Positions 13,441 to 64,000 of a DNA stretch of 64,000 nt are shown one piece after another. A program made the translations under genes and the position numbers. The notes under the pieces are model-generated. The model was not told the DNA's origin. It ran no database searches and was given only the letters and a program-made list of their open reading frames with translations. The DNA lies in assembly GCA_039621445.1 (NCBI GenBank), contig CP154954.1, forward strand, positions 34,569,737 through 34,633,736, in the 5' to 3' direction. The stretch is from Euglena gracilis (taxonomy: Eukaryota). The first letter of the stretch is position 1. The number at the start of each line of letters is the position of its first letter.

Positions 13441-13451
13441 TGTGTCACCCC

Positions 13452-13692: not shown

Positions 13693-14119
13693 ATCCCTTG
13701 TGTTGCCCACCCGTTTTGGGGGGCAAATCCCTTTTGTTGCCCAACTGTTCGAGGGCCCCAAAATAACAAAATCCCTTGTGTTACCCACCCGTTTTGGGGG
13801 GCAAATCCCTTCTGTTGCCCAACTGATCTGGGGGGCAAATCCCTTTTGTTGCCCAACTGTTCCAGGGCCCCAAAATAACAAAATCCCTTGTGTTACCCAC
13901 CCGTTTTGGGGGGCAAATCCCTTGTGTAACCCACCTGATTTAACCCACCTGATGTATGTAACGCAACTGATTTGGGGGGCAAATCCCTTTTGCCCAGCTT
14001 AGGGTTGGGTTGCAGGGGGGGGGGAGGTCGTGGGGTGGGCCGACCCTAAGTCGACCCTGGGGTTGTAGGGGGGGGGGGGAGGTCGTGGGGTGGGCCGACC
14101 CTAAGTCGACCCTAGGGTT

Positions 14120-17100: not shown

Positions 17101-17400
17101 GGATTTTGTTATTTTGGGGCCCTCGAACAGTTGGGCAACAAAAGGGATTTGCCCCCCAAATCAGCTGGGCAACAGAAGGGATTTGTCCCCCAAACGGGTG
17201 GTAACACAAGGGATTTTGTTTTTTGGGGCCCTCGAACAGTTGGCTAACAAAATGGTTTTGTCCCCCAAAACGGGTGGGCACCACAAGGAATTTTGTTATT
17301 TTGGGGCCCTCGAACAGTTGGGCAACAAAAGGGATTTGCCCCCCAAATCAGCTGGGTTACAAAGGGATTTGCCCCTAAAAACGGTCCGAAAATTTCATTT
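14120..17400 (-). repeat. Satellite array, right arm (reverse complement of the left arm, fewer units)
   Basis: gggattttgttattttggggccctcgaacagttgggcaacaaaagggattt recurs throughout. Confidence 0.97.
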
Positions 17401-23036: not shown

Positions 23037-23094
<58 letters not shown>

Positions 23095-23116
23095 TTTTTT
23101 TTTTTTTTTTTTTTTT

Positions 23117-23179
<63 letters not shown>

Positions 23180-32100: not shown

Positions 32101-34182
32101 CCCCAAAGTGGCAAAAGTCTTGGTTTACCCCCTCAAAGGAGCCATTTGCCTTCGACACCAAAGTCCATGGTGGGATTCATCATGACTTTTCTTCTTTGGC
32201 AAATCTTAAAAATTTTCAAATGGACGTTTTTTTTTGAGGTTTTCTGAACCCTTTTTGCAGCCTTGCTGAAATTGGCCATCTTGTGCCGGGTGTTTTTTGG
32301 CTGATTTTTTTTTTGCCAAGAAAGGGCATTTTAGGCAAGTGGGCACTGCATATTTTCCACTAGCTAGCCCTGCTAGCGCCCCCCCCCCCCCGGGACTCCG
32401 TCCTGTGTTTAAAACCCATCCTCCAGTTTGTCCTTGGTCAGACAGCGACAACACCCTCTTGGTCGATGGGTTGCGTGTGTAGCATTCGACCCGGTGTTTT
32501 TTGTTTTTTTTAAAAAAGAAGACGTTTTTTTATTTGAAAAACCTTCGAAATTCCCCAGCAAATAAGTGGGGACATACTTGCCCAACAGGGTAATAAAAAA
32601 ATGATCAAAATTGGTGATTCTGTGCATTTTTTTTGTTAATTTCACCAAAAATTGTGTGATTTTGAAGCATTTTGGTCCATTTTGATGTCACCCTTGCGAT
32701 CAAGGGAAATCTGGTCTCAATTATTGTTTTTTTGAACCTGATCCTCGCCCCGTCCAGGATTGGGTGCAGGTTACAGATTGGTTTCCCGAGCGCCCCCGCT
32801 CCAACGCGAAGCAGTTGCGGATGAGGGGGACCACCAGTCCTCCCAGCTGGCCAACCGGCTCCGCCAGGACGGCATCGCCCAGCACGACGTGATCGGCCTC
32901 TACGGCCACCGGTCCCCAGCGGTGGTGCTCTGCATCCTGGCGGTGCTGAAGGCCGTCCGGGGATCGCTGGAGGGCAGGGGGAAGGGGTCCGGCCGACCTC
33001 CGATTGCCTCCGCCCCCAACCCAAGTAATTGCCTTGAGAACGTTTGCCTTGCCCAAAAGTGGCCAAAAATGCAAGGCATTTTGAATGGTGGGGTGTGACA
33101 CAAGAGGCAGCCCTCCCCTTAGATTTCAACAACAAAAGAAGCCTTGGGAAGAGACGCTGCAAGTCTGGCTTTGTGGGGTGGCAACCACTGCCAGCCATTC
33201 CTGATGCCGGGGCGGCGTATTCAATGATGGACCCGGCATACCCCTCCGACCGCATCATGCTGTGCATGCAAATCGCTCAGCCCAAGGGATGGCTGCAGAT
33301 TGCAGCTGCAGGGGCACCACCGGAGGACCTGCGCAACTTCCTCCAAGGTATCCCCCTTTGCAGCCCAAAGCTCTTTGTGGGTGGCCATGGTTCGAAATCC
33401 GGTTTTTCATTTTTTTTTCAGAGAGTTGAACACGATACGCTCAATTTCCTTGAGAAATCATCATTTTCCTTGAGATGCTCATCTCCTTTCAGTTTGAGCA
33501 CCTGAGTGCTCTGACACTTGACTGAATCTTCACTTCCCAGTCATTGATAAGCTGAGTTCCCCACTGATCAACTCTCTGGTCCCCCAGGCTACATTTCGGC
33601 TACACACAGTCTCAAAATGAACAATCACTGGCCTACCGGGGCTGACTGACTGGTTTTTGGCCCAATTTTTCTCCCCGATGAGGGGGGTCGGCAAAAAAAC
33701 CACAAAAGTGACCTGAACCGAAGGCCCCAGAGAAAATATTGATCACATTTGGTAAAAAAGAATTTGGATTCGTACATTTTTCCCCGCCCCCGAGGCAAGG
33801 CAGGCCTTCCAAAAACCAGCCAGTCACTTTTTTGCTTCAGAAAATCAGTCATTACCACCCCCAAGGCCGGGATCCCACGAAACAGCCACAAAGGTGAAGG
33901 AAAATAAGGGAGCAGACGCTGCAATACATTGGGTGTTTTTTCCGCCAGAGTTTGCTTTGGAGGGGAACTCCTGCTTTCCCCCCAGGGCTGCAGCTGAAGG
34001 CGTGGCACAGCATCGACGAGCCGAACGCCGCCGGGCTGGCGCAGTTGCTGCAGGGGGTCCCCACCACCTGCCTCAGTGAGTGACCATCGCCCGCTGGACA
34101 CCGCCAATGGTGGCATTCACCTTGGGTCCACTGGCATCCCCAAGGCTTGGCTACGTCGGGGGGGGGAGAGGGGGGGAGTGAT

Positions 34183-34224
<42 letters not shown>

Positions 34225-37200
34225 AGGGGGGGGGGGGCTGGGGGGGGGGGGGGGTGGGGAAGGGGGCGAGGCGGTTTGCGGGGGGGGTGGGCGGGGGGTG
34301 GTGAGGGGGGGGGAAGGGGCTGGGGGGCAAGGTTGGGGGGGGAGGGGGCGGGGGGGGGTGGCTGGGGGGGGGGGGCTGGGGATACGGGAGTGAGCTTTGG
34401 AGGGGAACTCATGCTCGCCCAGGGCTGCAGCTGAAGGCTTGGCACAGGCACGGATCGACGAGCGAAAGCGAACGCCAGCCGGGTGGCGCCGTATGCTGAG
34501 TTTGCAGGGGGGTCCCCACACCACTTGGGAGCACTGGGAGCGGTGACCATCGCCCCGGTGGGGCTGGGAGCACGGCCATGGTTGGTCATTCACCTCTGGG
34601 TCCACTAGAGCATCCCCAAGTTTTGGGCGGATGTGAGGTGGTGTGTGTGTGTGTGTTTGTGTGCACCTGTTTGATTCCTCACGTGTGTGTGTGTGGGTGT
34701 GTGTGTGGTGTGTTGTGTGCCTGTGTGTGTAAGTGTGGTGTGTGGTGCCGGTGTGGTTGTGTGTGGGTGGGTGTGTTGTGTGTGTGTGGTAAGTGTGTGA
34801 TGCCAGCGTGTGTGTGTGTGTGTTGTGTACCTTTTGTGTGTGAGTTTCCGTGTGCCTAACGGTTCAGGCAGGGCCAACCCCAGCTCATTGCGGGAGCCAC
34901 CAACCCCTGCCCACCTGGGCATTTATCTATTCAAGGGCATCACCGCTGGTTGGTAAATAAAAGGGCCTGCCACCTCCGTGGTCTGCTGCTTCTCTGTGGA
35001 TGCCTTTTTTTCGCAATTGAAATTCAGCATTGATGTGCGCAGGCTTCTTTTTAACTCAGATGACCCCCCCCCCCCCCTGGCGGTGGGCTCAACGATGTAG
35101 GCCGGGGGGGGGGGGTTATGTTGGGTCGACCAACCTAGGTCGGTCGACCCAACACTGCAATGTTCCAGAGCACAAGTTTTTCTGAATGCAGATTTACTCT
35201 GCCTTCGGCCTCGTGTTTTTAAAAGAAATATCCCCTTTATGTATGTATGGATTGTGTTGCTCATTCACGCATATTTGGCGAGTAATACTGCAGTTGTTGG
35301 TTTTGGGTCGGTCGACCCTTACCTACCCTCTGTTGGGCTGACCGAGTCAGTCGGTCGACCCAACGGGACCCCCCCCCCCCCAGCCTACGTCCTGGCGGTG
35401 CCAGACCCTCCAGCCCCGGACCCCCCCCCCTATCCCCCGGGGGGGGGGGTCCAGCCAGCAGCTCATTTCCAGCCAGCAGCCTTTTTGCCAGCCGGAGGCT
35501 GGACCTCCCCGGGGTCCTTAAGAAAACCCCTGCTCCGACCCAGGACCCCCCTCTGGGTCGATGAAAAACAAAAATTTCTAAATTTTTTTTGCATGTTCGA
35601 CATTTTGATGGATAGAGCTGGATCAATGCTGGGGGGATGTGATGGAGGAAGCTGTGATGAGGGGAAAAAAGGCAGGTATAGGTGAGCTGGGCAGCCCAGT
35701 TGGCTGGCCGGCCTGCAGCCGGCTAGCTCGGCCTTCGGCCGGCTGGCCCGGCCTCCAGCTGGGCTGGACCCAACTTTATTTCAGTCGACCCCCGGGGGGG
35801 GGGGGGGCTCGCAGCCCGAATTTGGGCTGCTGGCTGGATTTGAGCTGCTGGCTGGGTGGATCCCCCCCCCCCGGGGGACGGGGTACCCTCCAGCTTAAGA
35901 AAACCCCTGGGTCGGAGGCTCATTATGGGTTTTCGCCAGTTTTTTTTTGGGAAGTCCGCTTAGAAGGGTTGATTTTGGGAGGGTCCCCGTGGGGGTCCCG
36001 CGCCGGGCCGAGTGGGTGTGGGGGACCCCCTCCCCCAGGGTTTTAAATGTCTTTAGATTGGTGTCCACAGGGACCTGGTCCAACATGGTTTTCGCCTGTC
36101 ACCGGCCCGGACCCTCTGCATACATCTCAGCAACTCCCCTGGGAGCTCCTGGGTTTGTGGCGATGTGATAATGGGGGAGCATAGTGGGGGAGCATAGTGG
36201 GGGATAATGGAGACAGCAGGGGAACAGTTGAACTATTATTATTTGCCAAAGGCTTGTAGTGATGAACCTCGTCTGGAGACACAATCATTCCCCTGCTCTG
36301 TAGGTGTCTTGCAAGCACAGCCCTCTCACCGCTTTCTATCCCTGGATGTCTCAGCGGTTTGGCATGCCCAAGCACCTCTGGTTGCCAGGAGTCAGGATGC
36401 AACCGTCATTGGGACAGGATTTTTTCACTGATAGGATTGTTTTCCTGTATTAGCAAATGTGACCCTTCTGCCCTTCACCCTTGCCTCTGCTGGTGTTGCA
36501 ACTGTCCACAGCTGCTTGCCAGCGGGAGAATCTGACCGCTTTGCTATGTGCAGTGGAATTGCCCATGACCCTCTGCAGCGAGATATCTTCACCCCACTTT
36601 TCCTTGGAGCTACCATCTGCATTCCAAGCAGAGCATGCCCTGTTGTAAAGTGTTGGGTTTAATCTTTGATTTTCTCGGCATAATTTCGTAACTCGTTTTC
36701 TACATCTTTTTCCCCCCCGCTTTTTTTCGATCTGTGATTTCAGAACAGTTCCCCATGGATTCTTTTTACGCAACATTTCACCACCCATATCCCGTGTGTT
36801 CTTTGTTGTTTGTTTGTCCTTCTTTCAATGGTGGGTGAAGGTCATCCACTGCTGGAAACACAGGATACCATTACCACCCCGGGGCAGTTGGCCAGATGGA
36901 TGTACGACAACCAAATCACACAATCCTGCTGCACTCCTGCAATGGGCCAGATCTTGATCACGGTTGAGGTGTGTGGGTAGGTGGGTGGGTGCCAGGGTTT
37001 GATATAAGGAGGGCGTACATGGTTTAGGTGGGGGGGTGTCCCCCCCCCCCCCCCCCCCCTCCTGGCCCGCAGGGGGGGTCCGGACCACCCCCCCCCCCAC
37101 CTGCCAGGGGACCCTCGGGGGGGGGGGGGGGGGGGTGGGGGCGTGTTCCCGGGACCCCCCCCAAAAAGGGTCAATTTTTTCCTCCGGCGCTTCGCGCCGA

Positions 37201-40200
37201 AAATTTTTTGCATTTTTGGCACTTTTTGCCCAAAAGTGCCCAAAATGGCACTTTTGGTCGTTTTGGGGGGTCAAAAATTTTCGGCCACCCTGACCGCGCA
37301 CCTGTTTAGGTGGGGGGGGTCCCCCCCACCCCCCCCCTCCTGGCCCGCAGGGGGGGGGGTTCGGACCACCCCCCCACCTGTCCTTATATCGAACCCTGGT
37401 GGGTGCGTGTGGGTGGATGTTTGTGTGGGTGGGTGTGCGTGAGTGTGTGAAAGTGTGTGCTTGCTGAAAGCAAAAAGGGAGCTGGGGGTGGATGGATTGG
37501 GGACCCCCCAGGTCACCTGCAAGCAAAGAGTTGCTGGAATTCCCACTCAGCCATGTTCATATCAGAGGCAATAAACTCTTTAGGCCGGTGGGGAAGAAAC
37601 CCGCTGCCTCCCCCACCCCCTTTGGGCCAAGCAGGACATAAAACATCAAAACAAAAATTGGACGATCCAAAAAAAATGGGCAGCTGCACATGGGCACGCA
37701 GAGGGGGGGAATGTGTTCTGAGCAGTTTCTTGCAGTTTTTTTTTTGGTGTGGATTTTTGGATTTGGAATGGATTTTTTGGATTGGAGTTTTTTTTAACAA
37801 ATATTTGAAAATGTCAGGCCAAGGTTTTTGCATCCTTTTTCTTTCATGAAAGTTTTTTTGAAAAAAATCGAATTTCTCTAGGCACAGCAGAAATTTGAAG
37901 TTCTTTTTCTATGCGTTTCTTTTTTGCAGTTTCTTTCTGCAGTTCTTTTGCAATTCTCTGCAGCGCAATGTCAGCGTATTGCACCTCCCTGCCATTTTTT
38001 TCCAGAGCATCGATTTTAGGGTGAATCCTTCATTTGTGGCTGTGCCACCTGGTTTGCAAAGTGGTCAGAAGGGGTGGGTCCCACCCCCCCCTTCATATTG
38101 CGGTCCATCCTTCCCTTATTTGAGCAATGCCATCCACCCATAGCACCTGCCACCTGGAGGGGATGCATGTGTGCGACGCGCCTACACATGCTAGAACATG
38201 CAGGTTCATATGCTTGTTCACCTCCTGGGGGGTCAGACCCCCCCAAGGGGAGAGTCCAGGCCACCCCCCTTTGGACTGAGGGTGGGACCTTCCCCAGGAA
38301 CCCACAAAAATATTTTCCGGGCTTCGTGCTGGGAAAGATGAAAAATTTTGGTGTATGTTTTGACTGATTTTTCCAAATAAAAGTGCGCGGAAAACGCGAT
38401 TTTGGGGGCTTTTTTCAAGCCCCCCCCCCCAAGGGGAGAGTCCAGCGCCACCCCTTTGGACGGAGGGTGGGACCTTCTGGCGTGCGTGCTGGGCGTGGGT
38501 TGGTGTTTTGGGTATGTTTGGTGATTCAAATAAAAGGTGGATTTGGGAGGTGGCTTTTTGGGTTTTCAAGCCCCCCCAGAATCCCAGCGCTTCACGCCGC
38601 AATTTTTTTTGGGTGGATGCACGTTGTTGGGGGGTGTGTGCAGGTTGGTTAGGGTTTCAGGTGAAAAAATAAGACACCTGGGGGCTTCGTGGTTTTCAGA
38701 TTCCCAGTTCAAAAATCGAGGTCGGGGTTTTTGGAAAACCCGTAATAAATTATAGGAAGTTCGTGCAGTTAGTTGTGTCCCCCCCGCCTCCTGGACTGGG
38801 GGGGGCATCCGGACCATCCCAGAAGACCGACCCCTGGGGGACCCCCCAAAAGATCAAAATTTTCTTTCCGTCGCTGCGAGCCATTTTTTTTTTTTTTTTT
38901 TTTTATTTTTTTTTTTTTAAAAAGTTCCAAAAATGCAGTTTTGGCCGCTTTGGCGTCGAAAATTTTTCGGCCTGGCACAAAGCGCCGGGCCGAAAAGTAG
39001 TCACCTGGACCACGCTACCGTTCAGGTGTGGGAGGGGGATGTCACTCCCCACCTAAACAGTAGCACGGTCCAATCCCCCCCTCCCACCATTGGGGGGTCC
39101 GACCCCACCTTCCCTTACAGCAGGGAAATTAAGTAGTGGGACGGTCCAGGGAAACTAAATAGTGGAACACCCCCCAAAAATGCTAATCCCCCGGAGACCA
39201 TCTGCGAGTTGCAAAGGCTTTTCAAATTGTTGCAATATCAGGAGGCTTCAATGTGCGGCATGTATAAGGTGTACCCAGTACCATCCAACGGATGGCCTAG
39301 GGCCGTGGGGGGTCTGTCAGTAACGGGTGGGACCACCATGAGCATCGAGCACAGCAGCAAGGCGGCTGGGCATCGACGCGTATAAAACTCGAGTTTGTTC
39401 GGGAGAAATGTCAGCAAAAGCACACTGCAGAGCTGCCCAAAGTTCGTTTCGGTTAGGGAAAACACATCCTTCGAGCTTTGCAAGCAGAAACACCCACAGG
39501 TGCTCGATCGGGTTGAGGTCCGGGCTCATTGTGTGCCGCAAACAGGCCTCGTTTCTTCACCTTGCATGGGGGGAGGGGGGCAGGGTGTTCAATCCACCTC
39601 TTACCTGGGAGAGATGCATCTGCCCCAGCCCATCATTTCCCCCCATTTGCTAAGCCTGTGCCTCACACTTCACAAGGGGAACGGTTTCGATGAGAGCTTG
39701 GAAAATGCATCATTCATAGTGGACCGCGGAGACCTCCCCACGCCTACACCTGGCAAACTGATGAGATCCGCAAACTCCAAGCAGATGCCTGCGCAGGACC
39801 CGTTATCCAGCATCTTCACGGCATTGTCCCGCAGCCAGGACGTCGTGCTTCTTGCTCGGTGGGCCGGTGCACCATCTTGTTGGATTCTCCAGCATGAGGT
39901 TCTGCGCAAACACATGCTAACCAAATCGATTCAAGGGGAGGTAGTATCTTTGCATGCCTGAATCAAAGCAAATGTCTGGCAATGAAATCACCATGTCTTC
40001 CCATGTTTCGTTGAGGTGACTATAGAAACTACCTCCGCTTGAATCGATTTGGTTAGCATTTCGCATGTGTTTGCGCAGAACCTCATGCTGGAGATTCCAA
40101 CAAGATGGTGCACCGGCCCACCGAGCAAGAAGCACGACGTCCTGGCTGCGGGACAATGCCGTGAAGATGCTGGATAACGGGTCCTGCGCAGGCATCTGCT

Positions 40201-43200
40201 TGGAGTTTGCGGATCTCATCAGTTTGCCAGGCGTAGGCGTGGGGAGTCTCCGCGGTCCACTATGAATGATGCATTTTCCAAGCTCTCATCGAAACCGTTC
40301 CCCTTGTGAAGTGTGAGGCACAGGCTTAGCAAATGGGGGGAAATGATGGGCTGGGGCAGATGCATCTCTCCCAGATAAGAGGTGGATTGAACACCCTGCC
40401 CCCCTCCCCCCATGCAAGGTGAAGAAATGAGGCCTGTTTGCGGCACACAATGAGCCCGGACCTCAACCCGATCGAGCACCTGTGGGTGTTTCTGCTTGCA
40501 AAGCTCGAAGGATGTGTTTTCCCTAACCGAAACGAACTTTGGGCAGCTCTGCAGTGTGCTTTTGCTGACATTTCTCCTGAACAAACTCGAGTTTTATACG
40601 CGTCGATGCCCAGCCGCCTTGCTGCTGTGCTCGCCGCTCATGGTGGTCCCACCCGTTACTGACAGACCCCCCACGGCCCTAGGCCATCCGTTGGATGGTA
40701 CTGGGTACACCTTATACATGCCGCACATTGAAGCCTCCTGATATTGCAACAATTTGAAAAGCCTTTGCAACTCGCAGATGGTCTCCGGGGGATTAGCATT
40801 TTTGGGGGGTGTTCCACTATTTAGTTTCCCTGGACCGTCCCACCATTCAATTTCCCTGCTGTACATTGAATCCTGACTGCGAGGTAAGCATTTATTTGGA
40901 AGGTGATTTTTGAATGTCGATGGTGCGACGGTTGCTCCCTGAAAGTCAGTTGTGAATGCCACGTCCTGGCGACGTTCTCAACGAACGTGTCTTTCCTTCC
41001 AGGATCCCACCTTCACGATCCCGTCCCTCAAAGTGTGCCTCTTCGTGGGCGACGTCCTCATCAAGCGGGACGTGCTGCTGTTGCACAAGCTGGCGCCCAA
41101 CGTCAAGGTGTGCGGGGCGCCCCAGCTGTCCTGCCCGGTTGTTATCTGGATTGCCGTCAACAGACATGTGCGGGCCACCGGCCTCTCAGGTGGTGAACAT
41201 GTTCGGCACCACGGAGACCCAGCGGTCGGTGGGGTACTATGAGGTGCCCCGGGATGCTGCCCAGCTGGCCAAGCTGAAGGAGATCATTCCCTGCGGCCGG
41301 GGCATGCACATGGGGCGGCAAATGACGGCTGGCCTCAGGCCAAGGTGGGTGGGCAGGGCCCATTTGTGGGTGATGCAATGGATTTGAAGCAGAGGCTCGC
41401 CCAGAGAAATTGCAGTTGGAAACATTCCGGAGATAATTTTGTCAATTCATCTGTGCGTTAGTGCTCTCTTTTGGGTCTTTCTAGCAACTGTAGAATCATC
41501 AATTTCTTGCACTGAAAGCCCAAATGCTGCGCTATGTGCTTGTTTTTTTTTAAATACAAATATTTCCCCCCCCTTTTTTGAAATAAAATATCTTCTGAAT
41601 GAAATTTTTGTTTGTTTGTTTTGATTTCGTTTTTAATTATTTTGGAATAGGGTTTCTCAATTTGGCATGTTTCCATTGAGTTCCTCAGAACACCCAACTG
41701 GACCATTTCCTCCAAAAAAAGTCTTGTCCTATTTCGAGCTGGTTGAATTCTCCTGCTGTTCTGAAGCTTGATCTTCACGGCAGTAGTCGCTTTATTTTCA
41801 GAATCCCCCGGAACAACATCCAAACGTTTCATGCGGATTTCGATCGGCGACATTTCTCATCTGGGGGCCGTGCCATGCGCCAGAAGGACGTGGGGTTGAT
41901 TCTGCTGAACAAAGCTGGCCTCCAGGCGGGCTTGGGGGAGGCGGCAGAGATCTATGTGCGCAGCCCGCATCTCTCCAAGGGCTACCTTGGTTTGCCAGAG
42001 GACACGGCAGCCAAGTTCATTCCCAATCCCTTCCACCCAAGGAGGCCTGGAACGCAACTGTCCGCCTGCACACACTCGTGACCACAGACCACAATCGTGA
42101 CCGCAATGTGACGGATGCAAACTCACACACACTCACACACACACACACCACACCACACCACACCACACCACACCACACCACACCACACCACACCACACCA
42201 CACCACACCACACCACACCCACACACAAAATGCATGCGCGCAGACGCATCTACACAATACACACACGTGCACGCACGCACACACGCAAACACACACACAC
42301 ACATGCGCATTCACGTGCGCTTTCTCACTCACTCGCACGCCCACACGCATGCAGACACACCATAAAGACTTTTTACTTGTTAATCACCTAGGCTACCCTT
42401 GCCCATTAACCCTCTGTGGCCTGGGACCGCTGGTACCGCACGGGAGACCTGGGCCACTACCTCCCCAGCGGCGATGTGGAGTGTGTCGGCCGGGCCGACG
42501 ACCAGATCAAGATCCGGGGCTTCCGCATCGAACTGGGGGAGATCAACGCCAAGCTGAGCTCCCACCCGGCCGTGAAGGAGAGCGTCACCCGTGTGGCCAG
42601 CCAGTTCTCTGTGTGCTGACCCTCAGATTAAGTTTGGCATTCACTGGGCTCTTCTAACAACCGGGGTGTCTTGGTTTAACTCTGATTGGGTTGCTTTCTA
42701 AGTTGGGGAAATCGGCCACAATGCTTGCAGAGGCACCGGCAGTGCTTCACATGAGAGTTGGCTGCCGGAGGCGTTGGACCGCGCCGGCGAGAAACAAATT
42801 GTGTGCTACGTCGTGCCCACCGCAGCAGCGGCCGCCCAAGTGGCCACGCTGCCGGGTGAGCTGCGGGAGCAGGGTTCGATGCCGGGGGGTGTCCCAGCTT
42901 GAGGTGGGGAGGATGTCCCCCTCCTGTGGTCGAGGGTGGGACCCGGACTGATACCCCTCTCCCGCTCTCACATCGAACCCTGTGTGGGAGTTCCTGAAGA
43001 CCAAGGTGCCCTCTTACATGGTGCCCAAGGCGGTGATTCTGCTGCAGAAGATGCCGCTGACCCCGAATGGAAAGATTAACCACAAGGTCGTGCTCGGCTT
43101 TCCTTGTTCACAGCTGGAGGGCGCAAACAAAACACGCATTTCCCAATCCTAATCCAAACTCAGATTTGGGCGGTTCACAACGGATTTTGGTTTTTTTCCC

Positions 43201-46200
43201 ATAAAGGGCCAGCCCTCAAGGACAGCCCTCAGGCCAAAGGGCCGTCCAAGGGGCGGATTGGGGCACGAACAGGGTCGAAAATAAATGGTTGAAAAAACGC
43301 TTTTTTTGACGTTTTGGGTGAAATTGCATCCTTATACAGCAAAAGAAGTTAATTGCCTGAACCGTTTATTCTTTATAGTTGCTGACCCGGGAATGAAGGA
43401 GACAATTTCAACGCTGTGATACCTCATGCATGCTGTTCATGCTGTTCCCCTCTCTCAGGCATTGCCTCCGCTGGACAGTGTGGATGCGGACCTTCCAGAG
43501 AACACGGCCAGCCTGGACCACCTCACTCCCACCCAGCTGAAGGTGCTGGAAGTGATCCGGGCTGCCCTGCACACCAATGCAGTTGGTGTGAGTGCATGGG
43601 CATGGGCCGGCCAATGTGTCCAAACGACCTCAAGCAATGTATGCAAAGCCTGGCACAACACAAGTCACTTTGACATATCCTGTGAAATGAGTGCATCATC
43701 ACCCGCAGTTCATCGCTCCCCCCCTTCTCTCCTCCTTCCTCCATTCATTCATGATTCATCCCAGTTCATCCATCATCGCTCCCCCCCTCCATGTGGATGC
43801 GTTGCCAGGGAGGTGGATGGCCCTCCGTGTCGGCTCTGATGCTCATTGGCTGCACACTGGCATGGCATGGCAACCTGGCGGCCCAAAACGGCCCTCATCG
43901 CCTCCACAGGCCCGGAGGACAACTTCTTCAATGTCGGCGGCCACTCCCTGGCGGCCATCCGGACCACGATGGAGCTGAACAAAACGTTCGGTATCCAGCT
44001 GCCCACCTCCGTGATCTTCAACGAGCAGACCGCTGGCCAGGCCTCTTGTGGCTGTGACAACTGCCGCCGGCTTCAAACAACACTCCTTTTTTTGCTCTGG
44101 ACCACATTCTCACCCAACCTTTTTCTATCTTTTCCCTTTCCTCTGCTACACAAAACGTTTTTTTTTCCCATTCATCCATGTCTCCCCTCTCTGGTTCATG
44201 TTCTTCAACACATCGCCTTCCATTTTCCAACCTCCATCTGGAGAACTCTAAATTCAATCAAATTCACATGAGAAGCTGGGGGGCAGGGGGGGTGAATGAA
44301 TTGCAAGTTGCAGTTGCGCTTCGCAGGTTTCGAGCCCCAGGGAGGTGCGCACAAGCGGCCTGCGTTGTTCGCATCGGGTCGGCGGTCGACGCCGTGCGGT
44401 CCGGCAGTGCGGGCAAGGCGGCGGCCCCCAAGGTGGACATGCTGGCCGAGGCGGTGCCGGCGGCCGACATCCAGGCGCGGGACGGGGCCATCCCGCCGTC
44501 CGGCAAGCCAGTTGGGGTGTGCCGGCCTTCCCTGGAGCAGAAATGCAAGGGACTACGTCTGTTCCAACTCCACAGTGCGGGTTTGATGTAATATTGGTTC
44601 GGACGAAAGTGCAGTCAAAAAATGGCCCAAATGTTCCCAGACGAAGGAAACAGCACAAAATTTTGCAGTGGCCCATTTATGAAATGGTCCGTTTTAATGA
44701 GATGAATAACCCCTCCCTCCCCCAAATACCCCCCAAGTGATAAAACCCCCAGACTACCAGGTTTTGTGTTGCGCCGGTGGCACGGCACAGGCGCGCAGCT
44801 GGCCCTGGAGATGTGGGGTGATGGATGGTCCCCAGGGCTTTAACCCCCCTCCCCAGTTAGAAGCCCCCCAGGGCTACTATTCGGTCAGTCTGCAATTCTT
44901 TTTTTACAAAAAAAATGCAAAAATGACAAAAGAGACAAAAAATTGCCAGGAGACAAAAGAAAAAAACGATAAAAAAAACACAAAACACAACAAAAATGCA
45001 GAAACATAAATTTTCCTAAAATCAAAAAAAAAACCCAAAAACGCTTTGCGTTCCCCCCTGTCATGTATTTGCAAAATGTTCAAAATCAAAAATTGACCAA
45101 AAGAATCAACAGGGCACCTGTGCCCCTTTTTGCAACTTAGGGTCTTTTTTTTCCCCCACAAACAGGCACCCTTTTGCGACTACTATTCCGACTACTATTC
45201 TGACTAATTCATCCTTTTTTGTCATTTTTGAAATGCTTTTGATGATTTTTATTCCTTTTTCTGTGCCTTTTTCCACAGTGTGGAAGGGATAGTTTATTAT
45301 TGGGCAGCCGAAATTAGTACTTGGGGGGGCAGGGATGTTTGGGAAGTCCTGAGGTCAAGACCATACCATTGCTTACCAACCCCCCCCCGGGGGGAGAGGG
45401 TAGCTTGCCGTTTTCAAAAACCAGTCACCCACTTCCACCCGGGGGGGGGGGGGCGTCGGCCACTTTGGCCACATAGCCAAAATGGCCTAAAATCAAGGGA
45501 TTTTGGCCAAAAATCCCAAAAATTTTCTGGCGACGGGTGGCCATTTTCAGGAATTCCCAGCTGCCCACACTGCCAGAAGGGGGGGTCTGAAAAAAAAACA
45601 ATCAGCAACACCCAGCGGGGGGGGGGAGGTCACATTTTAAGGAGCGGTCCGGACTCCCCCTCCCAACACATCAAACCGGACTGTGATGCACACCCACCCG
45701 ACAATGATGCACAACCACCGAACGGTGACACACCTCCACCGGACAGTGACGCACATCTATGGACTGTGACGCATATGCACCAGACAATGACTCACAGAGG
45801 GATGGGAGCCCCCCGACCTCGAAACGGTAAGGGGCCAGGAAAATTTTTGGTCTGTGGATGGTCAAAGGGTACCGGATACCAGACCAAAATTGTTGGGAAA
45901 TCCTGATCCTTCTTTGAAAAAAATTCTGAAAATGCTCATTTTGATTTTTTGGCATTTTTTTTAATGTGGAAAACAGTACAATATGCAGAAATGTGCAATA
46001 TGACTGAGTGTGCAACATGATTAAAATGAGGAAGAGGACTTCCCAGCACAACAGCGCCGGAAACTAAAATTTAGCCATTTTTAGAACCTGCCAAGGATGG
46101 TCCGGACACCCCCACCCAACATCTAGTAGGGGTCAAGACCCCTACTCCAACCTCAAACCGACAGGCTTCCCATACATCCCTGGGGGGTATTTATCGCTGA

Positions 46201-49200
46201 CCTCTTATCTCTTCAGTGTTGCTTAACAGTGAAGCTTAACACCGGGAAAAGGGGGACCCCCCCACAGGTTGGTCATGAGAACGGCGGATTATCACCATGA
46301 CCCCGAACCCATTCCCAGAAAAAAATTTTCAATCGCAAGCGACTGGATCCCAGCTTTCCAAATTGTTTGACACCGAACTCCCATCCAGGCCCGAGTTATT
46401 CAGCCGACAAAGGGGACTTCAGGTCCTGGGTAGGATTAGCCCCCCCACCCAGTTTCGACTCTGCTGTTTCGCCGGGGTAAGATTTTGGGTTGAGAAATCG
46501 ATTTTTCAAAAGAATGTCGTACATTATTGCCGAAAGTGTCTGCCAGACCAAATGTGCCCCTGGAGACCCTCTAACCCCCCCCATTCGTCATTTTTAGCCG
46601 CCGACACACCTGGCACATGTTCGGGCTTGGTTTTGTGGCCCAAAACAGCCATTTTCTGAGTTCATTTGATTTTGGGGTGTTTTGGGGCATCTTTTGGGGC
46701 AGTTTTTTTTTGGACTTTTGGGGTCAAAAAATCGAAAATTTCAAAACATCAAATGGTAGGGAATGAAAAGATTGGGCTCCTAAAACAAACCCCCCCCAAG
46801 CCAGGGTTGCTGTTTTTTTTTTGTCGAGGAAATTTTTGTCTGACAAAACATTGAGAAACATTCGAAAAAAAAGGGTCTTTTTGTGTTTAAAGAAGTTACG
46901 ATTTGCCCATGGGTGAAATGGCTCACTTTCCTAATCCTTTTTCAGCTTCATTGGCCCTCTAGTGGACAGGAGGAAGCGGTGTGGGCCTGCTATGGCCTGA
47001 ACTACCAAAAATCCAAATAGCAGCCCCCCAGGCAGCCGCATGTATTCAAGGCGCTGGCAAACTGCAGACACATAAATGCAACATAGATCAAGTTTTTGCC
47101 ACACTTAGCAGTCTTTTGGTTTCTTGAACCATTTGGTGAGAGAGGGTTGGGCAGGTTTAGATATAAGGAGGGCGTACATGGTTTAGGTGGGGGCGTGGCC
47201 CCCCCCCCCCCCCCCCCCTCCTGGCCCGCAGGGGGGGTCCGCCCCCCCCCCCCCACCTGCAAGGGGAGTCCGGACCGACCCTGGGGGGGGGTACCCGGGG
47301 GTACCCAATTTTTTCCTCCGGCGCTTTGTGCCGAAATTTTTTTGCATTTTTGGCCAATTTTTGCCCAAAAAGTGCCCAAAATGGCACTTTGGTCGATTTG
47401 GGGGGTCAAAAAATTTCGGTCACCCTGACCGCGCCACTGTTTAGGTGGGGGAGGGTGTCCCCCCCCCCCCCCCCCCCCTCCTGGCCCGCAGGGGGGGTCC
47501 GGACCACCACCCCCCCCTCCTCTCCTTATATCGAACCCTGGGGTTGGGACAGAGGGACGCTTAGCAAATGAAAAGAGCAATTTCCACATCGAAGTCCAAA
47601 AAGCCAGACTTTTTACACCTGGTACAAAGTGCAGAAGATTTTTTAGGCTGCAAAAGGGTACCCAATTAGAAGCCCCCCCCCCCACTTCTAAACCAGCAGA
47701 AAGCGGAAAGTGTGCATGCCAGCCAGGGCATAGCTTAAGAAAATTTGACCCCACCCCGGGGGGTCCAGCCAGCCAGCCAGCAGCCTTTTCCAACCCGGGA
47801 ACCCCCCTTCAACGAAAATTTTCCAGCTGCCCAAAGGGCGGCTGGACGGTAACGAATTTTTGTTTTCAGGGGTGCAAAAATGGCAAAAATGGGTCAAAAA
47901 TAGGCGAAAATGGGCGAAAATGGGTCAAATTTGGGCTGGCCAACAAAAATTTGGGGTCAAATAATACATTTTTTTTGCATAATTGCCAGTTTTTGGGGCA
48001 TTTTTGTGATTTCGATTTTTTTTTTGGTACCCGGTTCGACCCCGAGTCAGGCCCAGCTCCAGCCCCGGACCCTGGGGGGGGAAACGTCCTGATGCCAACT
48101 GAAATATTTTGCATGCAATTTGCTTTTTTTTTGGCTTTTTTTGTGAGTTTTTTGTGGGGTTTTTGTGTTTTCTTTGCTTCTTTTTGCATCGCTTTTTTTC
48201 GAGGGTCCAGGTTGTGTCACCCCCAGCAAAAATGACACCCACCAAATGGAAAAACTCCCGGCCCTCGATTTCGAGTGTCCAAATAATTACCGGGGTTTTG
48301 GTAATAATTTTGGGGTTAGTTGCCACTGTTTGTTGCTTCTGACGTGCCCAAAATTTTACTTTTCCCCCAAGGAATCTGCTGAAATCAGGGTTTTTTTTAG
48401 TCGTGGACCCCCGGGGGGGGTAGGGTGGGTGGGTCCGGCTGAGCCCCGCCCCCCCCCCCCCCCCGGCCGAAGGCGCAGAAAAAGTGCTATTTTAGCACTT
48501 TCGCGATTTTTCGGCCATTTTTTTGTGGGTCCCCCGGGACCCCCCCCCCCCGGTCTTAAAAAAACCCCTGCCTGAAATACACAGTGCGATGGGGAATTGG
48601 GCAAAGATAAATTTGTTCCGATAAAATTGGTGGCAGAAAAATCAGACAAAATCCTTGAATGGCCCAGGTTACTGAACAGAGCCATTGCGCACTTTACGTC
48701 CTCCTCCGTAGCCTTTTTTTGTTCGTTGCTGTCTGCGGTGCTGCCTCACAGGCCTTCGTCACGGGGGCGGACGGGTTCGTGGGCAGCTTCGTGGTGCACA
48801 CTTTGGTGGAGCTCACCGACTGCCCCATCTACTGCCTGGTGCTGAGTGAGAGCGTCGACGAGGCCAAGGCTCGGATGACTCTGCCACTCCCTCCCTTGCT
48901 CTTTTTGCTGCTTTTCTGCAGTACAATGCAGACAAAAATTACAGGAGACAGAAATTATGGGGGAAAATATTATGGGAATATTTTGTTTTTGAAAAAATGA
49001 TTGGGAAAATTCAAAAGTTGAGGGAAAATAGCGGGAAATTTTTGTCAGTGGTAATGAATATTTTTTTTTGGCAAAAAAGGCAACTCAAAGTTCCAAAAAT
49101 GGTCAAAATGGACGTCATTGTGGCTTTCCGCTTTAAAGTCACCCCAAAAAATTGACAATATTGCATAACTCCATCTTTTTGTGTTTTTGAAGTTTTGACC

Positions 49201-52200
49201 AACCTTGAAACCCCCCCCCCCCACAAAGGGCGCAAGAAAGGAACACTGGACAAACATTACGGGAAGAAAAATGATGGAAAAATCGTGGTAGTTTCTCAAA
49301 GTTTGCCCGTATTTTTTTTGTCCAGACTGTAAGCCTCGAATGCTTACTTCCATGTTGTAGGATCCCCCCCCCCCCCCGGGAGTCCAGGGCAGACTCCCCC
49401 CAGGGGGGGGTCCTGGTCCAGAGGCCCAGGTTTAGCCTCATGGGTATGGGCCCCGGGGTGTCCATGCCTGCAAGGGAGGGTGTGCAGCTGCGCGCTGGAG
49501 GCCATCGGTCGGTGGACCGACGCGTGCGAGGGCCGCCTGCGCATCTTGCCGGGCAACCTCGCCAAGCCCAAGCTGGGGCTGACGCCTGAAGCCTACGAGG
49601 ACGTGGCCAACAACACCGACGTCCTGTTCCACGTCGGGGCGTGGGTGAACTGGCTGCACGACTACTACACCCTGAAGCCCATCAACGTCGGCGGCACGGC
49701 AGAGAGCAGGGCACTCCTGGACATTGTGTGGGCAGAAGCCCATGTCCTCTATTCGGCTTTTTTTATGTACCAAATATGGAACAAATGGTCGAAAGCCAAG
49801 CCCAATGCCCTTGGAAATCGAAACTCAACCTTCGGGGCGGTTTTTGACAAGTTGGGTTCAGTGAAAAGGGCCAAAGAACTCACCGTGTTTGTCACCCTGA
49901 ATGCCAAGTTTGGCAATGGAATTGCCTGCCTGTTGAATTTCTAGCCGCACCCGCAGTTTTTCCAGAACTCATAAAAGGGTGATTTCCGAAAAGAAGCATG
50001 TTCCCGCGGCTTCTCCAGATGGGCCGCCATTCAAGGCAATTGGTTCGGGGCGAAGCGCCCTGCCGTCGGTGCTGCGGCTCGCCGTCGCGGGGTCGCGCCT
50101 GAAGAGCTGCCACCACATCTCCACCACCAACGTGTACGAGACCCCCTCCCTGCTGGCCAAGCCATCCGTGCCACCCAGGGAGTGGGGCCGTTGCTGCCAC
50201 CCCCCCTCCTCACCTTTTGGGCATTTGTGGTTCCCCGCGGCGATGACCTGCTCCTCTCCCCCCTCCCTGGCTCTGGAGCTGCTGGACCTCACGGTGACGG
50301 AGGGCATTGACGGGGGCTACAGCCAGAGCAAGTGGGTGGCCGACGCCATGATGGGCAACGCCCGGCGGCGGGGCATCCCCGTCTCCGTCTACCGCCCCGG
50401 CTTCATCACCGGTGCGCGCCTCACTGTGTGCATGTGCGTGTCAGGGGAACACGAGGGCTTCCGCTTCTCCCATGAGAAAGGGGTTACACATCGTTGCAAC
50501 GTCTTGCAGAACCTTCCAGAGGGTGCAGCCATACCCAATTTTGCCCCAGCCCAGCAGCCCCGCCCCTAAAGATGAATGATGGGATTTCTTCTGCCCTTTC
50601 TGCTTTTGCATCAAAGCAAGACGAGCATCTGGCGACGTTGGCGCTGTAAAAACAACCACGACAAACAACAACAACAACCACGACAAACAACAACAACAAC
50701 AACAACAACAACAAACACAACAACAACAACAGCTGTTGTTGTTGTTGTTGCTGCTGTTGCTGCTCTCTTTAACCTCCTGCAGCGGGTGTCTCCTCTTGCG
50801 AATCTCAGCCACGAGCATCAGGGTCCACCAGAGAAATGTCGCCAATACAGGCACGTGGTTTCTCTTCAAAGGATTTGCAGACCCCCAGCCCTGATTTTGG
50901 CCAAGCGGTGCTGCAAGCCAAGCCCCCCATCCTGCCGCCTCCCCTCTTGTCCTTCAGGTGATTCACAGACCGGCAAGTGGACCACGGACGATTTCCTCTG
51001 CCGCTTCCTCAAGGGCTGCACCCAATTGGGCCTGCACCCGGATCTGCCGGGGCACTTGGGGATCGACATGTCGCCCGTGGATTACGTCGCGGGGGCGGTG
51101 GTCCGGCTGGCCATCAACCCCGACACGCATGGCAAGACGTACCACGTCGTGTCCCCACAGCTCTTCCCCTACCCACGCTATTTTGAGTCACTGCGGTGTG
51201 TTGCTGTTATCCTCATCTCCCTGCGTGTGGTTTTTCTGTGCGTGTGCATTCTTCACGTAAGAATGCCCGTCAGCAAATTTTGTTGCCACTTGAACGTTGG
51301 GGGGCCTGAGGGGTCCGGCTTAAGAATTCCCCGAACAAATGTTATTTCACTTTCACTTTGCATAATAAACCAGGCAGCATACAGCATGCATGCTTAAAAA
51401 AATATGATACTGGACCAGAGCACCAACCAACATTTTTTTTTAAGAAAAGGACTAAACATGCCAAAAATGGCATTTTTTGAGCTCCTGAGGAGTGGCCCTA
51501 GTTGGTTAAGTTTAAAACTCACAAATTTTTTATGGCCTTTGGTTTTTATTTCTTTTTGGGCTTTGCTGTTTTTGGGGGGGGATTATAATTCTAAATTATC
51601 AGTATCTGAATTTGAATCCGGGTTAATCCGGGTTATGGGCAACCATTACGCACACATGTTGCCAAGAAACTCCCTGATGTACAGCCGCCATAAGGAAAAC
51701 AGGAACAGTTTTGCTGCCCTGCCGTTCATTGCAAGAATTGCTGTGCCACTGCTTCTCACTTCCTCGGACAGGCGCAATGGTTACGCCGTCACCCCTGTAC
51801 CATATGCTGAGTGGCAGCCAGAAGGATGTTCCCATCTTCTTTGGGCTTGCTCCTCCAGTCCCTCCAGTAGATCCACCCCACCCCCTCCCCCCCTCCCTCC
51901 CGCTCATTTCAAACCCTCTGGGGGGATCCCACGCTGGGCAGGTGGTGTGGAAAAGAAGGCTGTTTTTGCGCATCCAACCGTGGCCCATCACCTGGTCCCC
52001 CCCCCCGCCCCAACGGGAAACACGCCTCTGGGGGTGGCAGCGGCTGATCGCCGCCATCGCCGGCCAGGGAGACAGCGCCGAGCCCAACGCCCTCACGGCC
52101 ATCCTGCCAACCTTCACGGAGAACTGGCTGGACACGCGCATCCGCCCCGCCCAGGCTGCCCAAGGCGCCCTCCACCTGAAACTGTTTTTTTGGAAGCATT

Positions 52201-52596: not shown

Positions 52597-52599
52597 GAA

Positions 52600-52883
52600 C
52601 AGGGGTTTTTTGAGTCTCGGACCCCCTGGGGGAGGGGGGTAGGGTGGGTGGGTCCCTTGGACCCCCTCCTCTCCCGAGGGGGTGGGGGTAGGGTCTGGGT
52701 ATATCTTTTTTGGCGCCGAAAATTTTGAATAAGGTGCTATTTTTGGCATTTTTGGCCATTTTCCGGCAAAACTGGGTGGGTCCCCCGGGACCCCCCCCCC
52801 CCCGGGGGGGGCGGCCCAACCCCAGGGGGTTGGTGGGTGGGTGCCGACCCCCTCCCCCCCCCCCGGTCTCAAAAAAACCCCTG
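52600..52883. mobile_element. hAT-type MITE, family 2, inserted at the LYS2 stop codon
   Basis: caggggttttttgag...ctcaaaaaaacccctg; perfect TSD gctgagaa (52592-52599, 52884-52891). Confidence 0.92.
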
Positions 52884-61010: not shown

Positions 61011-64000
61011 TGCGGCCTCGAGTTGGCTGTATTATTTCCCCCCAAAATACGCCACTCGGAGAGAAATCGATGACTCTCTGCTTGGTTTCTCTCAGGGTGC
61101 AGCGGGGGAGGGGGGTACTTGGAAGGGGGGAAACTCTGCACCACTAATATAAACGTGCCAAAAATATGCCCCGGAAATATGCCCCCGGCACGTTGTTATT
61201 GGGGGTTTGCACCACACAGTCAGGCAGTGCTTTTGAGATTGCCCTGTACGTAGAAGGGCGGGGTGGTGAAGTTTGACATTCAGGCCAGGTGGGGTTCCAA
61301 ACCCTGCTTTCCGTCCAGGGGGAGATTTGACAAAATGCATCTCCACCGGTGGCAAGATTGGGCGTTTTTTAAAGCATTATGGTGACTGCAACCTGGGTGT
61401 GTACAAAAAAAACCATGTCCTCCAGGGAAGAAACATAAAACAGCAAAATCAAACCCCAATGCAATTTGAGAGGGGTTACACCAGTTACGAAATGGGCATT
61501 TCTTTTTGCCTCTTTTTGCCTTTTTGCCTACACCAGTTTGCGCATTTGCGGAGTTTTTCTGAGATTTTTTTAATGAAAATTGTCCAAACGTTTACACATA
61601 AGTGCACGTTTGGACGGTTTTGGAAGATTGGCACGGTTTGTACGTGTTAATGCAATCTCAAGGATTGAGCCCTTTCAGCCGTCATGCCCCTTTTTTTCCA
61701 TTACGTTAGGTGGAATTATTTCTTTTTCTGACACTTCTTGGTGAACATATGTGATACACAAAATTTCACTTTGTGACAAATGAATACTCTTTTTTGGGGT
61801 GATACAAATGAAACAAACCTGCCCTTGCACCAACGTGGGGGGACACACTGTGTACAGGTGGAAAAAGATTCCCCCCCCCCCCACAAACAAGGTGCAGCTG
61901 AACTGCAACACCGTTCTGGGATTCGGGAAGAATTTTTATAGAACTGGCATATTTCTCAGAAGTTTCCAAGCACAACATGAACACAATTCTCTCCTGACGT
62001 GCCAATGGACATCCTAGCTCTCTGGCAGGAAGGGGGCACGGGTTGGGTTCCCAATGGCAATGACACAGAAAACCTGCCAAAAGACGGCCGCGGGAGGGAT
62101 ACACGCCCAATGCGGTCACGGCTATCGATGCAAGGCGGGGTCAAATAAACGGGAAAGATCCTTGAACCAGAGATTCACTCACCCCCTGGGGGGGGGGGAC
62201 TTTTCCCCGGCCCTGAACCAACTCACCCACTTTTGTTTAAAACCTCCCCCCACCCACCCACGACCAGGCTGTTTTTTGCCAACCCCCGGGGGGGGGAGGG
62301 GGAGGTCCGGAGTGCCTGTGAGTGCCTGCCCAGGCAGGCACTGCCCCCCCCCCGGGGGGGGGTTGGATTTCGGCCTGTGCCTAGGCATATTCCTTTGAAA
62401 ATAGGCCATTTTTGGCTCCCCGGCGTTGTGCTAGGGCACTTTTGGCCGTGTGCCCCCCTCCCCCGGGGTCGGATTTGGAGTGCCTTGGAGTGCCTGCCCA
62501 GGCAGGCACCCCCCGCCCCGGGGTGGGGTCGGCACCTGACTTAAATACAGCCTGCCCATGACCCCCCCCCCCCCAGGGGTCAACCACCCACTCACCCACC
62601 CAAAATCAAGCCATAATTGGCCGAAAATGCTGATAAAATGTTTCCAGCCTGGCTTTTGGGCGGATAAAAACTGACCCCTGGCGCACCCCGGGGGGTGGGA
62701 GTCCTGGCCACCCACTCTTGAAACCCCCGGCAGGCTTGTATGGGAATCTCAGAGGGGGGGGGGAGGGACCCCCCTTCCTACCTCCAGTTTTTCGGTCGCC
62801 GAACTTCTCGCTGTTGAGTGCAAAACTTCGGCCCTTTTTTGAGTCAAAAATGAATTTTTCTGAAATTTCTCAAAAATGGCGGGGAGTTAAAAGAAATATC
62901 CAGAGACTTAAATTGAAGCCCTTAAAATGCCCCATCTAACAGTATTTGATTTCTCCGCAACTCCCCGTCTAGCCCGAGTTATGAGCATTTTTCGACCAAT
63001 TTTGGCTGTTTTGCCAAAATTTCATACTGAGCGTCAAGCAGGCTGGTGCTCACCGACCGGGGGGGGGAGGGGGGGGGTGCTATGGGGTGCCTGCCCCTAG
63101 CAGGCGCACCGCCCTGAGGTGGGGGACCCAGAAAACTTTCATTGAAAATGGCCTTTTCTGGGCCCCGGTGCCTTTGGCGCTGGGCTCAGAGGGGGGGGGG
63201 TGCTTGCTATGGACAGGCTGGTGGGCACCCGACATGAAGCGTCAGAAGTTTTTTTTTTGCCCCTGCAGCTTCGAGCCAGTCTGAAAGAATTCAACGCCTC
63301 AATATCGACCGAAAATGCTATTCAGGGCACCTTTTGAGGCAAAAACCAAAATTCAGCCGGGCTATTTTTCTGCCAAAAAAAATGAAGCGAAAAAACCAAA
63401 AATAGATAAAAAAAGTATTTTTGTCGATTTTTGACCACTTTTGTCCCATCACCCAGCTTGGGTGTGCTGGCCCAACTTCATTTCAGCGGACCACAGGGGG
63501 TCTGGACCCCTACATGGGGGGGGTCAGACCCTCCTCCTTTCGAAACGGCAAGGTGCCAGGAAAATTTTCGGTTCTTTGGACGGCCAAAGAACCGGATATC
63601 AGGCCAACATTGTTGGAAAATCCCCAATTTTTCTTTGAAAATAAAATCCAAACATCCTCTTCTTCTTGAAAAATTTGAACTTTTTTCCCCATGCGGACGA
63701 ACACCAAAGCATCCAAAAAAGTGCAATGTGCTGAACAGCGAGCAATATTATGCATTTTCCGGCATGCAGCGCTGGAAAAAGTTTTTTGGCGTTTTTGAAA
63801 CCTGTCAACGAGGGGGGTCCAGACCCCGGCCAGGGCGTGGGGGCACCCTGGCACCCGCCTGGTCGGGGGGAGCCGAGTGGGGCAAGGGGCCGAAGGAGGT
63901 CTTGGAGGCCCAGGCTGGAGGCAGGCGGGCGGTCACTCATCCACCTCCAGGACCCCCCATGGCCTCAGGCAGCTGGCCATGCCGGACCCCTGGAGGGCAG

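Follow-up and report, generated by a model that had tools for sequence, protein, structure and literature searches.

A nonconventional intron of Euglena gracilis probably derived from a miniature inverted-repeat transposable element

Analysis of a 64,000-nt stretch of Euglena gracilis nuclear DNA (GenBank assembly GCA_039621445.1, contig CP154954.1, positions 34,569,737 to 34,633,736 of the forward strand; hereafter the window) revealed a 121-nt nonconventional intron that corresponds to a 113-bp element with the anatomy of a MITE (miniature inverted-repeat transposable element) plus a single 8-nt copy of its flanking repeat. The most probable reading, to which a probability of about 0.8 is assigned, is that the insertion of a MITE into a coding exon made this intron, and that splicing directed by the published euglenid code removes the element together with one copy of the target-site duplication. 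The element is absent from the transcript-derived protein and from the gene of a related euglenid. We infer that this particular copy is transcribed and spliced and that a transposase, presumably hAT-like, made the insertion.

Anatomy, splicing and age of the focal intron

The intron is located in a gene for a nonribosomal peptide synthetase (NRPS)-like alpha-aminoadipate reductase, which contains 28 introns. The translation of a 60-residue exon (42410-42589) is 100% identical to the EukProt protein EP00667_Euglena_gracilis_P000671 (EG_transcript_671; hereafter P0050), which consists of 1295 residues with condensation, adenylation, carrier and reductase domains; the JGI name for the protein of a close relative is L-aminoadipate-semialdehyde dehydrogenase. 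Exact-word mapping of P0050 placed the gene on the plus strand, from about 18160 to 52593. For the resolution of introns, all donor/acceptor pairs between adjacent exon blocks were enumerated, and an exact rebuild of the protein was required. In this way 28 introns were resolved exactly against P0050, with most exons being 100% identical to it, while for one exon pair, 18604 to 18721, out of the 29 examined, no exact solution was obtained. Ten introns are GT-AG-compatible, 17 are without any GT/GC-AG register, and one is GC-AG-compatible; the latter also fits the nonconventional pattern and is counted below among 18 non-GT-AG introns.

The coordinates of the focal intron, of its parts and of related elements are listed in Table 1. 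An earlier note on this DNA, made from its letters alone, had described a perfect 12-bp terminal stem and flanks tgcgggag and tgtgggag agreeing at seven of eight positions, and both descriptions proved correct: the two arms are complementary at 12/12 positions, and the lone mismatch between the flanks is a C/T difference at a CpG, located in the intronic copy. The element thus shows the terminal inverted repeats (TIRs), fixed-length duplication, small size and lack of coding capacity that characterize MITEs, and its 113 bp together with one 8-nt flank copy account for the entire 121 nt of the intron.

The splicing code of nonconventional introns, obtained from knock-ins into an E. gracilis exon, reads 5'-N3CDG-/-CH'GN5-6|R, with a 5' spacer of exactly 3 nt and a 3' spacer of 5 nt (6 being tolerated), and suffices for the splicing of synthetic introns introduced into such an exon (Nomura et al. 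2025, PMC12501133). At the focal site, gag is followed by CAG at 42867-42872, and CTG at 42980-42982 is followed by tgtgg and the purine G at 42988. Because GGGAG is repeated, six registers (starting at 42865-42870) yield the same protein; none of these six has GT/GC-AG borders, and only the register 42867-42987 fits N3-CAG/CTG-N5|R. The arithmetic proposed in the earlier note, in which a 3-nt spacer ahead of CAG and a 5-nt spacer behind CTG sum to the 8 nt of the duplication, agrees with the experimentally derived code (PMC12501133). The 12-bp stem is the longest among the seven strict code fits in the gene, and both the minimum-free-energy and the centroid RNA folds pair the two intron ends, the energy of the whole fold being not unusual (z -1.6).

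P0050 reads GELREFLK across the site, which requires the removal of 121 nt, whereas the unspliced DNA gives an altered reading and then a stop. The junction ELR|EF is gapless against all seven bacterial and fungal adenylation domains compared, so that the removal of 121 nt restores an uninterrupted ancestral sequence. At the protein level only, these data support the suggestion that exactly the element and one copy of the duplication are lost and that the codons around LR|EF are restored.

The gene of a related euglenid was represented by six genomic open reading frames (ORFs; P0121, P0124, P0125, P0178, P0224 and P0244) on one 830-kb ENA contig. They are 97-100% identical to the full-length protein of this organism, P0123, and 61-88% identical to P0050; one ORF reads 87% to P0123 only as its alignment ran into intron read-through. 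Uninterrupted ORFs of the relative span the positions of 15 of the 18 non-GT-AG introns, among them the focal one, and these introns are therefore absent there; two others are not covered by these ORFs. The position of the intron at residue 424 (34147-36302) lies on an ORF edge, so that this intron is probably common to the relative and does not count as a further absence; its donor adjoins a 218-nt G run where window and transcript disagree. Beyond their homologous parts, the ORFs continue through non-homologous sequence for between a few and 76 residues. Eight of the ten GT-AG positions (residues 171, 266, 371, 516, 552, 768, 1098 and 1177) are situated on edges of ORF homology, and four of five read-through tails begin with valine (GTN), as expected from a GT donor. 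This one gene repeats the published pattern in which the positions of conventional introns are conserved and those of nonconventional introns are lineage-specific (PMC3935182, PMC4770533). The simple reading is that the focal intron was gained in the E. gracilis lineage.

Under the proposed mechanism, a non-autonomous CAGGG...CCCTG transposon would have inserted in a coding exon of the alpha-aminoadipate-reductase-like gene at the target tgcgggag, creating the 8-bp target-site duplication. In the pre-mRNA, the 12-nt inverted ends would pair and place the duplicated copies side by side, and nonconventional, non-spliceosomal splicing would cut 3 nt upstream of CAG and 5 nt downstream of CTG. The 113 + 8 = 121 nt would be removed, and the codons that stood there ahead of the insertion, CTG CGG|GAG TTC (L R E F), would be rebuilt. 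Any CAG...CTG element with an 8-bp duplication would in this manner bring the whole splicing signal with it, and for that reason an exonic insertion would be harmless on landing.

Table 1. Coordinates of the focal intron, its components and related elements within the window
Feature	Position	Strand	Remarks
Focal MITE-like element, 113 bp	42870..42982	+	perfect 12-bp TIRs; no ORF of note
5' TIR, cagggttcgatg	42870..42881	+	12/12 complementary to 3' arm
3' TIR, catcgaaccctg	42971..42982	+	12/12 complementary to 5' arm
Upstream 8-bp target-site duplication copy, tgcgggag	42862..42869	+	5 exonic nt + N3 spacer
Downstream duplication copy, tgtgggag	42983..42990	+	N5 spacer + 3 exonic nt
Nonconventional intron, 121 nt	42867..42987	+	gag-CAG...CTG-tgtgg then exon G; code-predicted register
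Upstream exon	42771..42866	+	100% identical to P0050 residues 704-736
Downstream exon	42988..43086	+	100% identical to P0050 residues 736-768
Neighbouring intron, 175 nt	42595..42769	+	GC-AG-compatible; fits N3-CAG/CTG-N5|G; 12-bp stem; flanks 5/8
MITE family 1, copy A, 406 bp	36993..37398	+	gtgggtgc duplication 8/8; within GT-AG intron 36969-41002
MITE family 1, copy B, 389 bp	47152..47540	+	gggttggg duplication 8/8; within GT-AG intron 44517-48751
MITE family 2, short copy, ends CAGGGTTTTTTT / AAAAAACCCCTG	48386..48570	+	flanks gctgaaat / cctgaaat, 7/8
MITE family 2, 284 bp	52600..52883	+	gctgagaa duplication 8/8; in 3' untranslated region
Third CAG...CTG element, ends CAGGCTGTTTTT / AAATACAGCCTG	62265..62554	+	flanks cccacgac / cccatgac, 7/8

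Related elements of the window and their superfamily

The two long MITEs with which the earlier note had linked the intron, copies A and B of family 1, are present with perfect 8-bp duplications as it had reported, and share 82% mutual identity (blastn). The window contains these two full copies and a solo 5' end at 28887, while the short form occurs only once. The ends of the focal element agree with those of family 1 at 11/12 positions, which upholds the claimed TIR match, with the qualification that the 5' end of copy B is degenerate (caggtttagata, starting CAGGT). By blastn, the focal element is 72-73% identical to the ends of copies A and B over 56-68 nt. When the 89-nt interior of the focal element (12-nt ends excluded) was compared with the long MITEs in an end-anchored collinear alignment, none of 2000 dinucleotide shuffles scored as well against either copy (z about 5), and the reverse-complemented MITEs remained at chance (z 1.3). 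The similarity is positional, in that the 5' half of the element matches the sequence directly after the MITE 5' end and its 3' half the sequence directly before the MITE 3' end. The same anchored test gave weaker signals against family 2 (6 and 34 of 2000 shuffles) and no signal against the third family. In the long MITEs, two directly repeated copies of a G/C-rich unit flank an A/T-rich centre, and the focal element looks like a one-unit short version of family 1; by sequence comparison it is a diverged relative of this family and not a recent derivative of copy A or B. Matches to family-1 ends in metagenomes (17 loci, one match each) were rejected as chance, since only 9-22 of 62 bases beyond the pattern agree.

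The window was also scanned for CAG-started inverted-repeat pairs with the outer 5 nt exact and at least 10 of 12 positions paired, lying 40-6000 bp apart and flanked by direct repeats with at most one mismatch, low-complexity and palindromic flanks being removed. At a flank length of 8, five elements were recovered (36993, 42870, 48386, 52600 and 62265), whereas lengths of 7, 9 and 10 gave no element in the window and length 6 only three unrelated pairs; no element passed the flank-length-8 scan in 20 Markov-1 random windows. Copy B was missed by the scan only because of its degenerate 5' end. Together, the six CAG...CTG elements have flanks identical at 7-8 of 8 positions at k = 8, and at other lengths from 2 to 11 the identity is near chance (copy A gives 10/12 at k = 12). 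In all six, CAG immediately follows the duplication as the start of the element, and moving the element boundary abolishes the duplication. The window therefore contains at least three families of CAG...CTG elements with duplications of exactly 8 bp, at about one copy per 10 kb.

The longer family-2 copy begins 7 nt past the last base of the stop codon, and the TGA of this codon lies within its upstream flank copy. Judging from its sequence, the code predicts that this copy should be spliced out of the 3' untranslated region (gaa-CAG...CTG-gctga|G). The two family-2 targets, gctgaaat and gctgagaa, are alike at 6/8 positions, which may reflect a target preference.

The designation of the intron as a hAT MITE, proposed in the earlier note, stands as far as MITE anatomy and the link to family 1 are concerned; membership of hAT is not established, the 8-bp duplication and the CAGGG end being its only grounds. 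Duplications of 8 bp are also made by the P, Novosib and Zisupton superfamilies. hAT elements have short inverted ends beginning YARNG and a target consensus nTnnnnAn. The duplication length fits, all six elements matching at length 8 only, and five of the six have CAGGG or CAGGC ends, in agreement with YARNG, copy B having CAGGT; the CAGGG ends resemble that of Ac. The agreement of the six duplications with the target consensus is poor, with T at position 2 in one and A at position 7 in four. On this basis a hAT-like nature of the elements is slightly favoured. Assignment to another superfamily, for example Merlin, is rather unlikely, though by no means negligible, and would leave the rest of the picture unchanged. 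Two Merlin families with 8-bp duplications were described in the E. gracilis draft genome, Merlin duplications being 8-9 bp long (PMC8101967), and the 5-6 nt permitted in the 3' spacer would be compatible with such lengths. The elements of the window thus share with Merlin of E. gracilis the host species and the 8-bp duplications; however, Merlin inverted ends start with GG according to the same source (PMC8101967), and all six elements start with CAG.

Alternative explanations and the other introns of the gene

Several observations weigh against a MITE origin of the focal intron or against its generalization. Support for the splice junction comes from a single transcriptome-derived protein together with the code. 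In an ungapped-style comparison, the element is only about 70% like both long MITEs, and the likeness of the interior claimed in the earlier note, which is clear in the end-anchored comparison, is only marginal when the local alignment is left free (z values of 2.8 and 2.3; scores as good were reached by 19 and 40 dinucleotide shuffles, respectively, out of 1000). A Pfam scan of ten long ORFs of the window detected no transposase of any superfamily with 8-bp duplications, its single match being a weak, sub-threshold one to DDE_3. When 27 introns were compared with the 64 kb by blastn, none of the 26 besides the focal one had a copy of its own elsewhere, the only matches being to the MITEs that lie within two large GT-AG introns and to an unrelated repeat; given the genome size, this absence carries little weight. 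Among 11 other introns with the 8-nt geometry, the flanks match at 36/88 positions, with a null of 31% from mismatched pairs (permutation p = 0.057). Finally, the window exons differ from P0050 by several substitutions and by frameshift-type indels (near 18420, 18530, 18580-18600 and 34070-34125), and the gene as it stands in the window might be noisily assembled, represent a different allele or be dead. The exon indels are probably assembly errors in G/C-rich stretches; because of such probable errors, single-base details such as the 7/8 flank match are less certain. The 218-nt G run mentioned above (34158-34375) adjoins one of the disagreements between window and transcript.

These disagreements, together with the finding that of the words sampled from the region just 0.72-0.78 occur in DNA runs, would suit a reading in which the insertion has made a single allele, paralogue or pseudogene null. 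The transcript encoding ELREFLK would then come from an empty-site copy at another place in a genome that is heterozygous and rich in repeats, and the 121 nt would be no intron at all. We regard this as improbable, since the 28 introns resolve exactly, most exons, including both that flank the element, are identical to the transcript, and the element fits a code sufficient for the splicing of synthetic introns in an E. gracilis exon. Moreover, a search of 5.8 billion proteins with residues 700-775 returned only two short proteins at E < 1e-8, namely an ORF of the relative and the filled-site ORF of the window (P0122), the latter present on 4 Logan contigs, and no empty-site ORF was found in this collection, even though its match would be expected at about 100% identity.

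The order of events might also be reversed, with an older intron resembling MITEs merely through shared CAG/CTG pairing ends, or with the MITEs having arisen from mobilised introns. Nonconventional introns are excised as circles (PMC11282704), which leaves room for mobility, and other introns of the gene begin their stems with CAGG-like ends while belonging to no detectable family. Even so, this order is very improbable: agreement with family 1 reaches 11/12 at the ends and is collinear and orientation-specific in the interior, the focal intron is absent from the relative, and the non-exonic copies have their own perfect 8-bp duplications of different targets, which points to DNA integration through staggered cuts and not to reverse splicing. 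Least probable of all is that filler DNA was captured during the repair of a double-strand break and the flanking repeat arose in that process, which is how the eight-nucleotide repeat of an E. agilis gapC intron was interpreted (Milanowski et al. 2016, PMC4770533). Such repair predicts neither a fixed repeat length nor defined element ends, yet the DNA supposedly captured has perfect inverted ends common to a dispersed family, every member of which is bordered by an 8-bp repeat.

Twelve of the 18 non-GT-AG introns of the gene have a terminal stem with flanks summing to 8 (in three of them counted from CAG/CTG rather than from one extra outer pair, and in one using the second-best stem), and in the remaining six the flanks sum to 7, 7, 9, 16, 17 and 18. 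In the six other introns that fit the code strictly, flank identity is at chance (16/48); with the 11 introns of 8-nt geometry (p = 0.057, see above), remnants of flank duplications outside the focal intron amount to a trend only. Weak flank identity fits old insertions with drifted intronic spacers and equally a different origin. The neighbouring 175-nt intron is possibly an older insertion of the same kind. The non-GT-AG intron 27850-32834 (4978 nt) has a long junction repeat (11/14, including GGACCA) and a stem CAACTGCTT/AAGCAGTTG whose flanks sum to 18 instead of 8; it also holds the solo family-1-like 5' end at 28887.

Overall, with a single exonic copy of the focal element type, the window proves one case, and its dominant MITE type carries the complete splicing signal. 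A genome-wide 'introner system', as envisaged in the earlier note, is not established on the basis of this one copy. Nor is it established whether the intron consensus is the footprint of transposon ends or a pre-existing rule that the elements satisfy.

Other repeats were observed in and near the gene. A large satellite (8500-17300) has spacings of 78, 34 and 112 nt and two blocks in inverted orientation, with inverted arms of up to 794 nt that are 96% complementary. A 623-nt inverted duplication (39116-39738 / 40241-40863; 98% complementary) within a large GT-AG intron encodes remnants of a Tc1/mariner-like transposase with a DLNPIEHLW motif (Pfam DDE_3 sub-threshold, E 0.009). A CA/CACAC microsatellite of about 180 nt (42124-42303) is situated within the non-GT-AG intron 42035-42407, and the 5.1-kb GT-AG intron 22656-27802 has the 7-nt direct repeat TCCACAG at both junctions (22649-22656 and 27796-27802). 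An Rfam search of 36000-53500 gave no match.

Relation to known introns and significance

A MITE-like origin of nonconventional introns was proposed by Milanowski et al. 2014 and repeated by Nomura et al. 2025 (PMC12501133) and in a 2025 diplonemid paper ('plausible to assume'). A 2024 Mobile DNA review, which takes up the same proposal, describes the CAG/CTG pairing as acting as inverted ends and TSD-like (target-site-duplication-like) repeats as frequent (PMC11282704), and Nomura et al. found 84% of introns 'slidable' through short direct repeats and left them out of their analysis (PMC12501133). In E. agilis ACOI 323, gapC intron 4 is a strain-specific recent gain with eight-nucleotide junction repeats, ascribed to break repair (PMC4770533). 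What has been published thus comprises the MITE origin, repeats described as 'TSD-like' and, for one newly gained intron, a repeat of 8 nt. In the openly available main texts searched on these introns, no named element family, non-intronic copies, 8-bp transposon duplication or link of N3 + N5 to such a duplication was found. Within the literature found, it is the focal locus that offers the first concrete instance of a MITE insertion giving rise to a nonconventional intron, and the clearest one available.

The focal intron resembles other euglenid nonconventional introns in its non-GT-AG borders, CAG at +4..+6 and CTG at -8..-6 with spacers of 3 and 5 nt, a purine at the start of the next exon, an extended terminal helix and a lineage-specific position. 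It differs from those described in the cited papers, where the MITE origin is a hypothesis, in being tied to a dispersed non-intronic repeat family and in having a target duplication that is still visible. With gapC intron 4 of E. agilis it shares its youth and the eight-nucleotide direct repeat at the junctions, whereas no related element was reported for the latter (PMC4770533).

A further comparison is offered by the introners of Micromonas and Aureococcus, short TIR DNA transposons whose target duplication forms part of the splicing arithmetic (Huff, Zilberman and Roy 2016, via PMC11282704). In both cases, this arithmetic makes exonic insertion harmless. According to that account, introners depend for their removal on the spliceosome, one of the two splice sites coming from the duplication, and form thousands of near-identical introns. 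In contrast, removal of the focal intron follows the non-spliceosomal CAG/CTG code, no GT/GC-AG register being available to the spliceosome, and the window holds one exonic copy rather than many similar introns. Insertions of Ds, a hAT element, are reportedly spliced out of maize transcripts, in work attributed to Giroux and co-workers in 1994. Removal of Ds uses cryptic spliceosomal sites and is usually imprecise. The focal intron is similar in being a possibly hAT-type exonic element removed at the RNA level, but the ends of the element determine where it is cut, and the sequence is restored exactly.

For some thirty years, neither the origin of euglenid nonconventional introns nor the mechanism of their removal has been settled, and the MITE hypothesis has stood since 2014 without a named element. 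The present locus pairs a concrete intron with relatives that are not introns, and it supplies a simple rule, according to which CAG...CTG ends plus an 8-bp duplication equal N3 + N5, and which accounts for cost-free exonic insertion; through it, the hypothesis of MITE origin becomes directly testable. A wider proposal, which we advance tentatively and at somewhat below even odds, is that the N3 and N5 spacers mirror the 8-bp duplication, that all nonconventional introns descend from, and are still fed by, one superfamily of CAG...CTG MITEs, and that the splicing activity is a system for their precise excision at the RNA level. If this is true, introns should fall into MITE families, the youngest should show 8/8 flanks, and non-exonic transcribed copies should be spliced as well. 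Such descent would concern a class that makes up about 70% of the introns of E. agilis.

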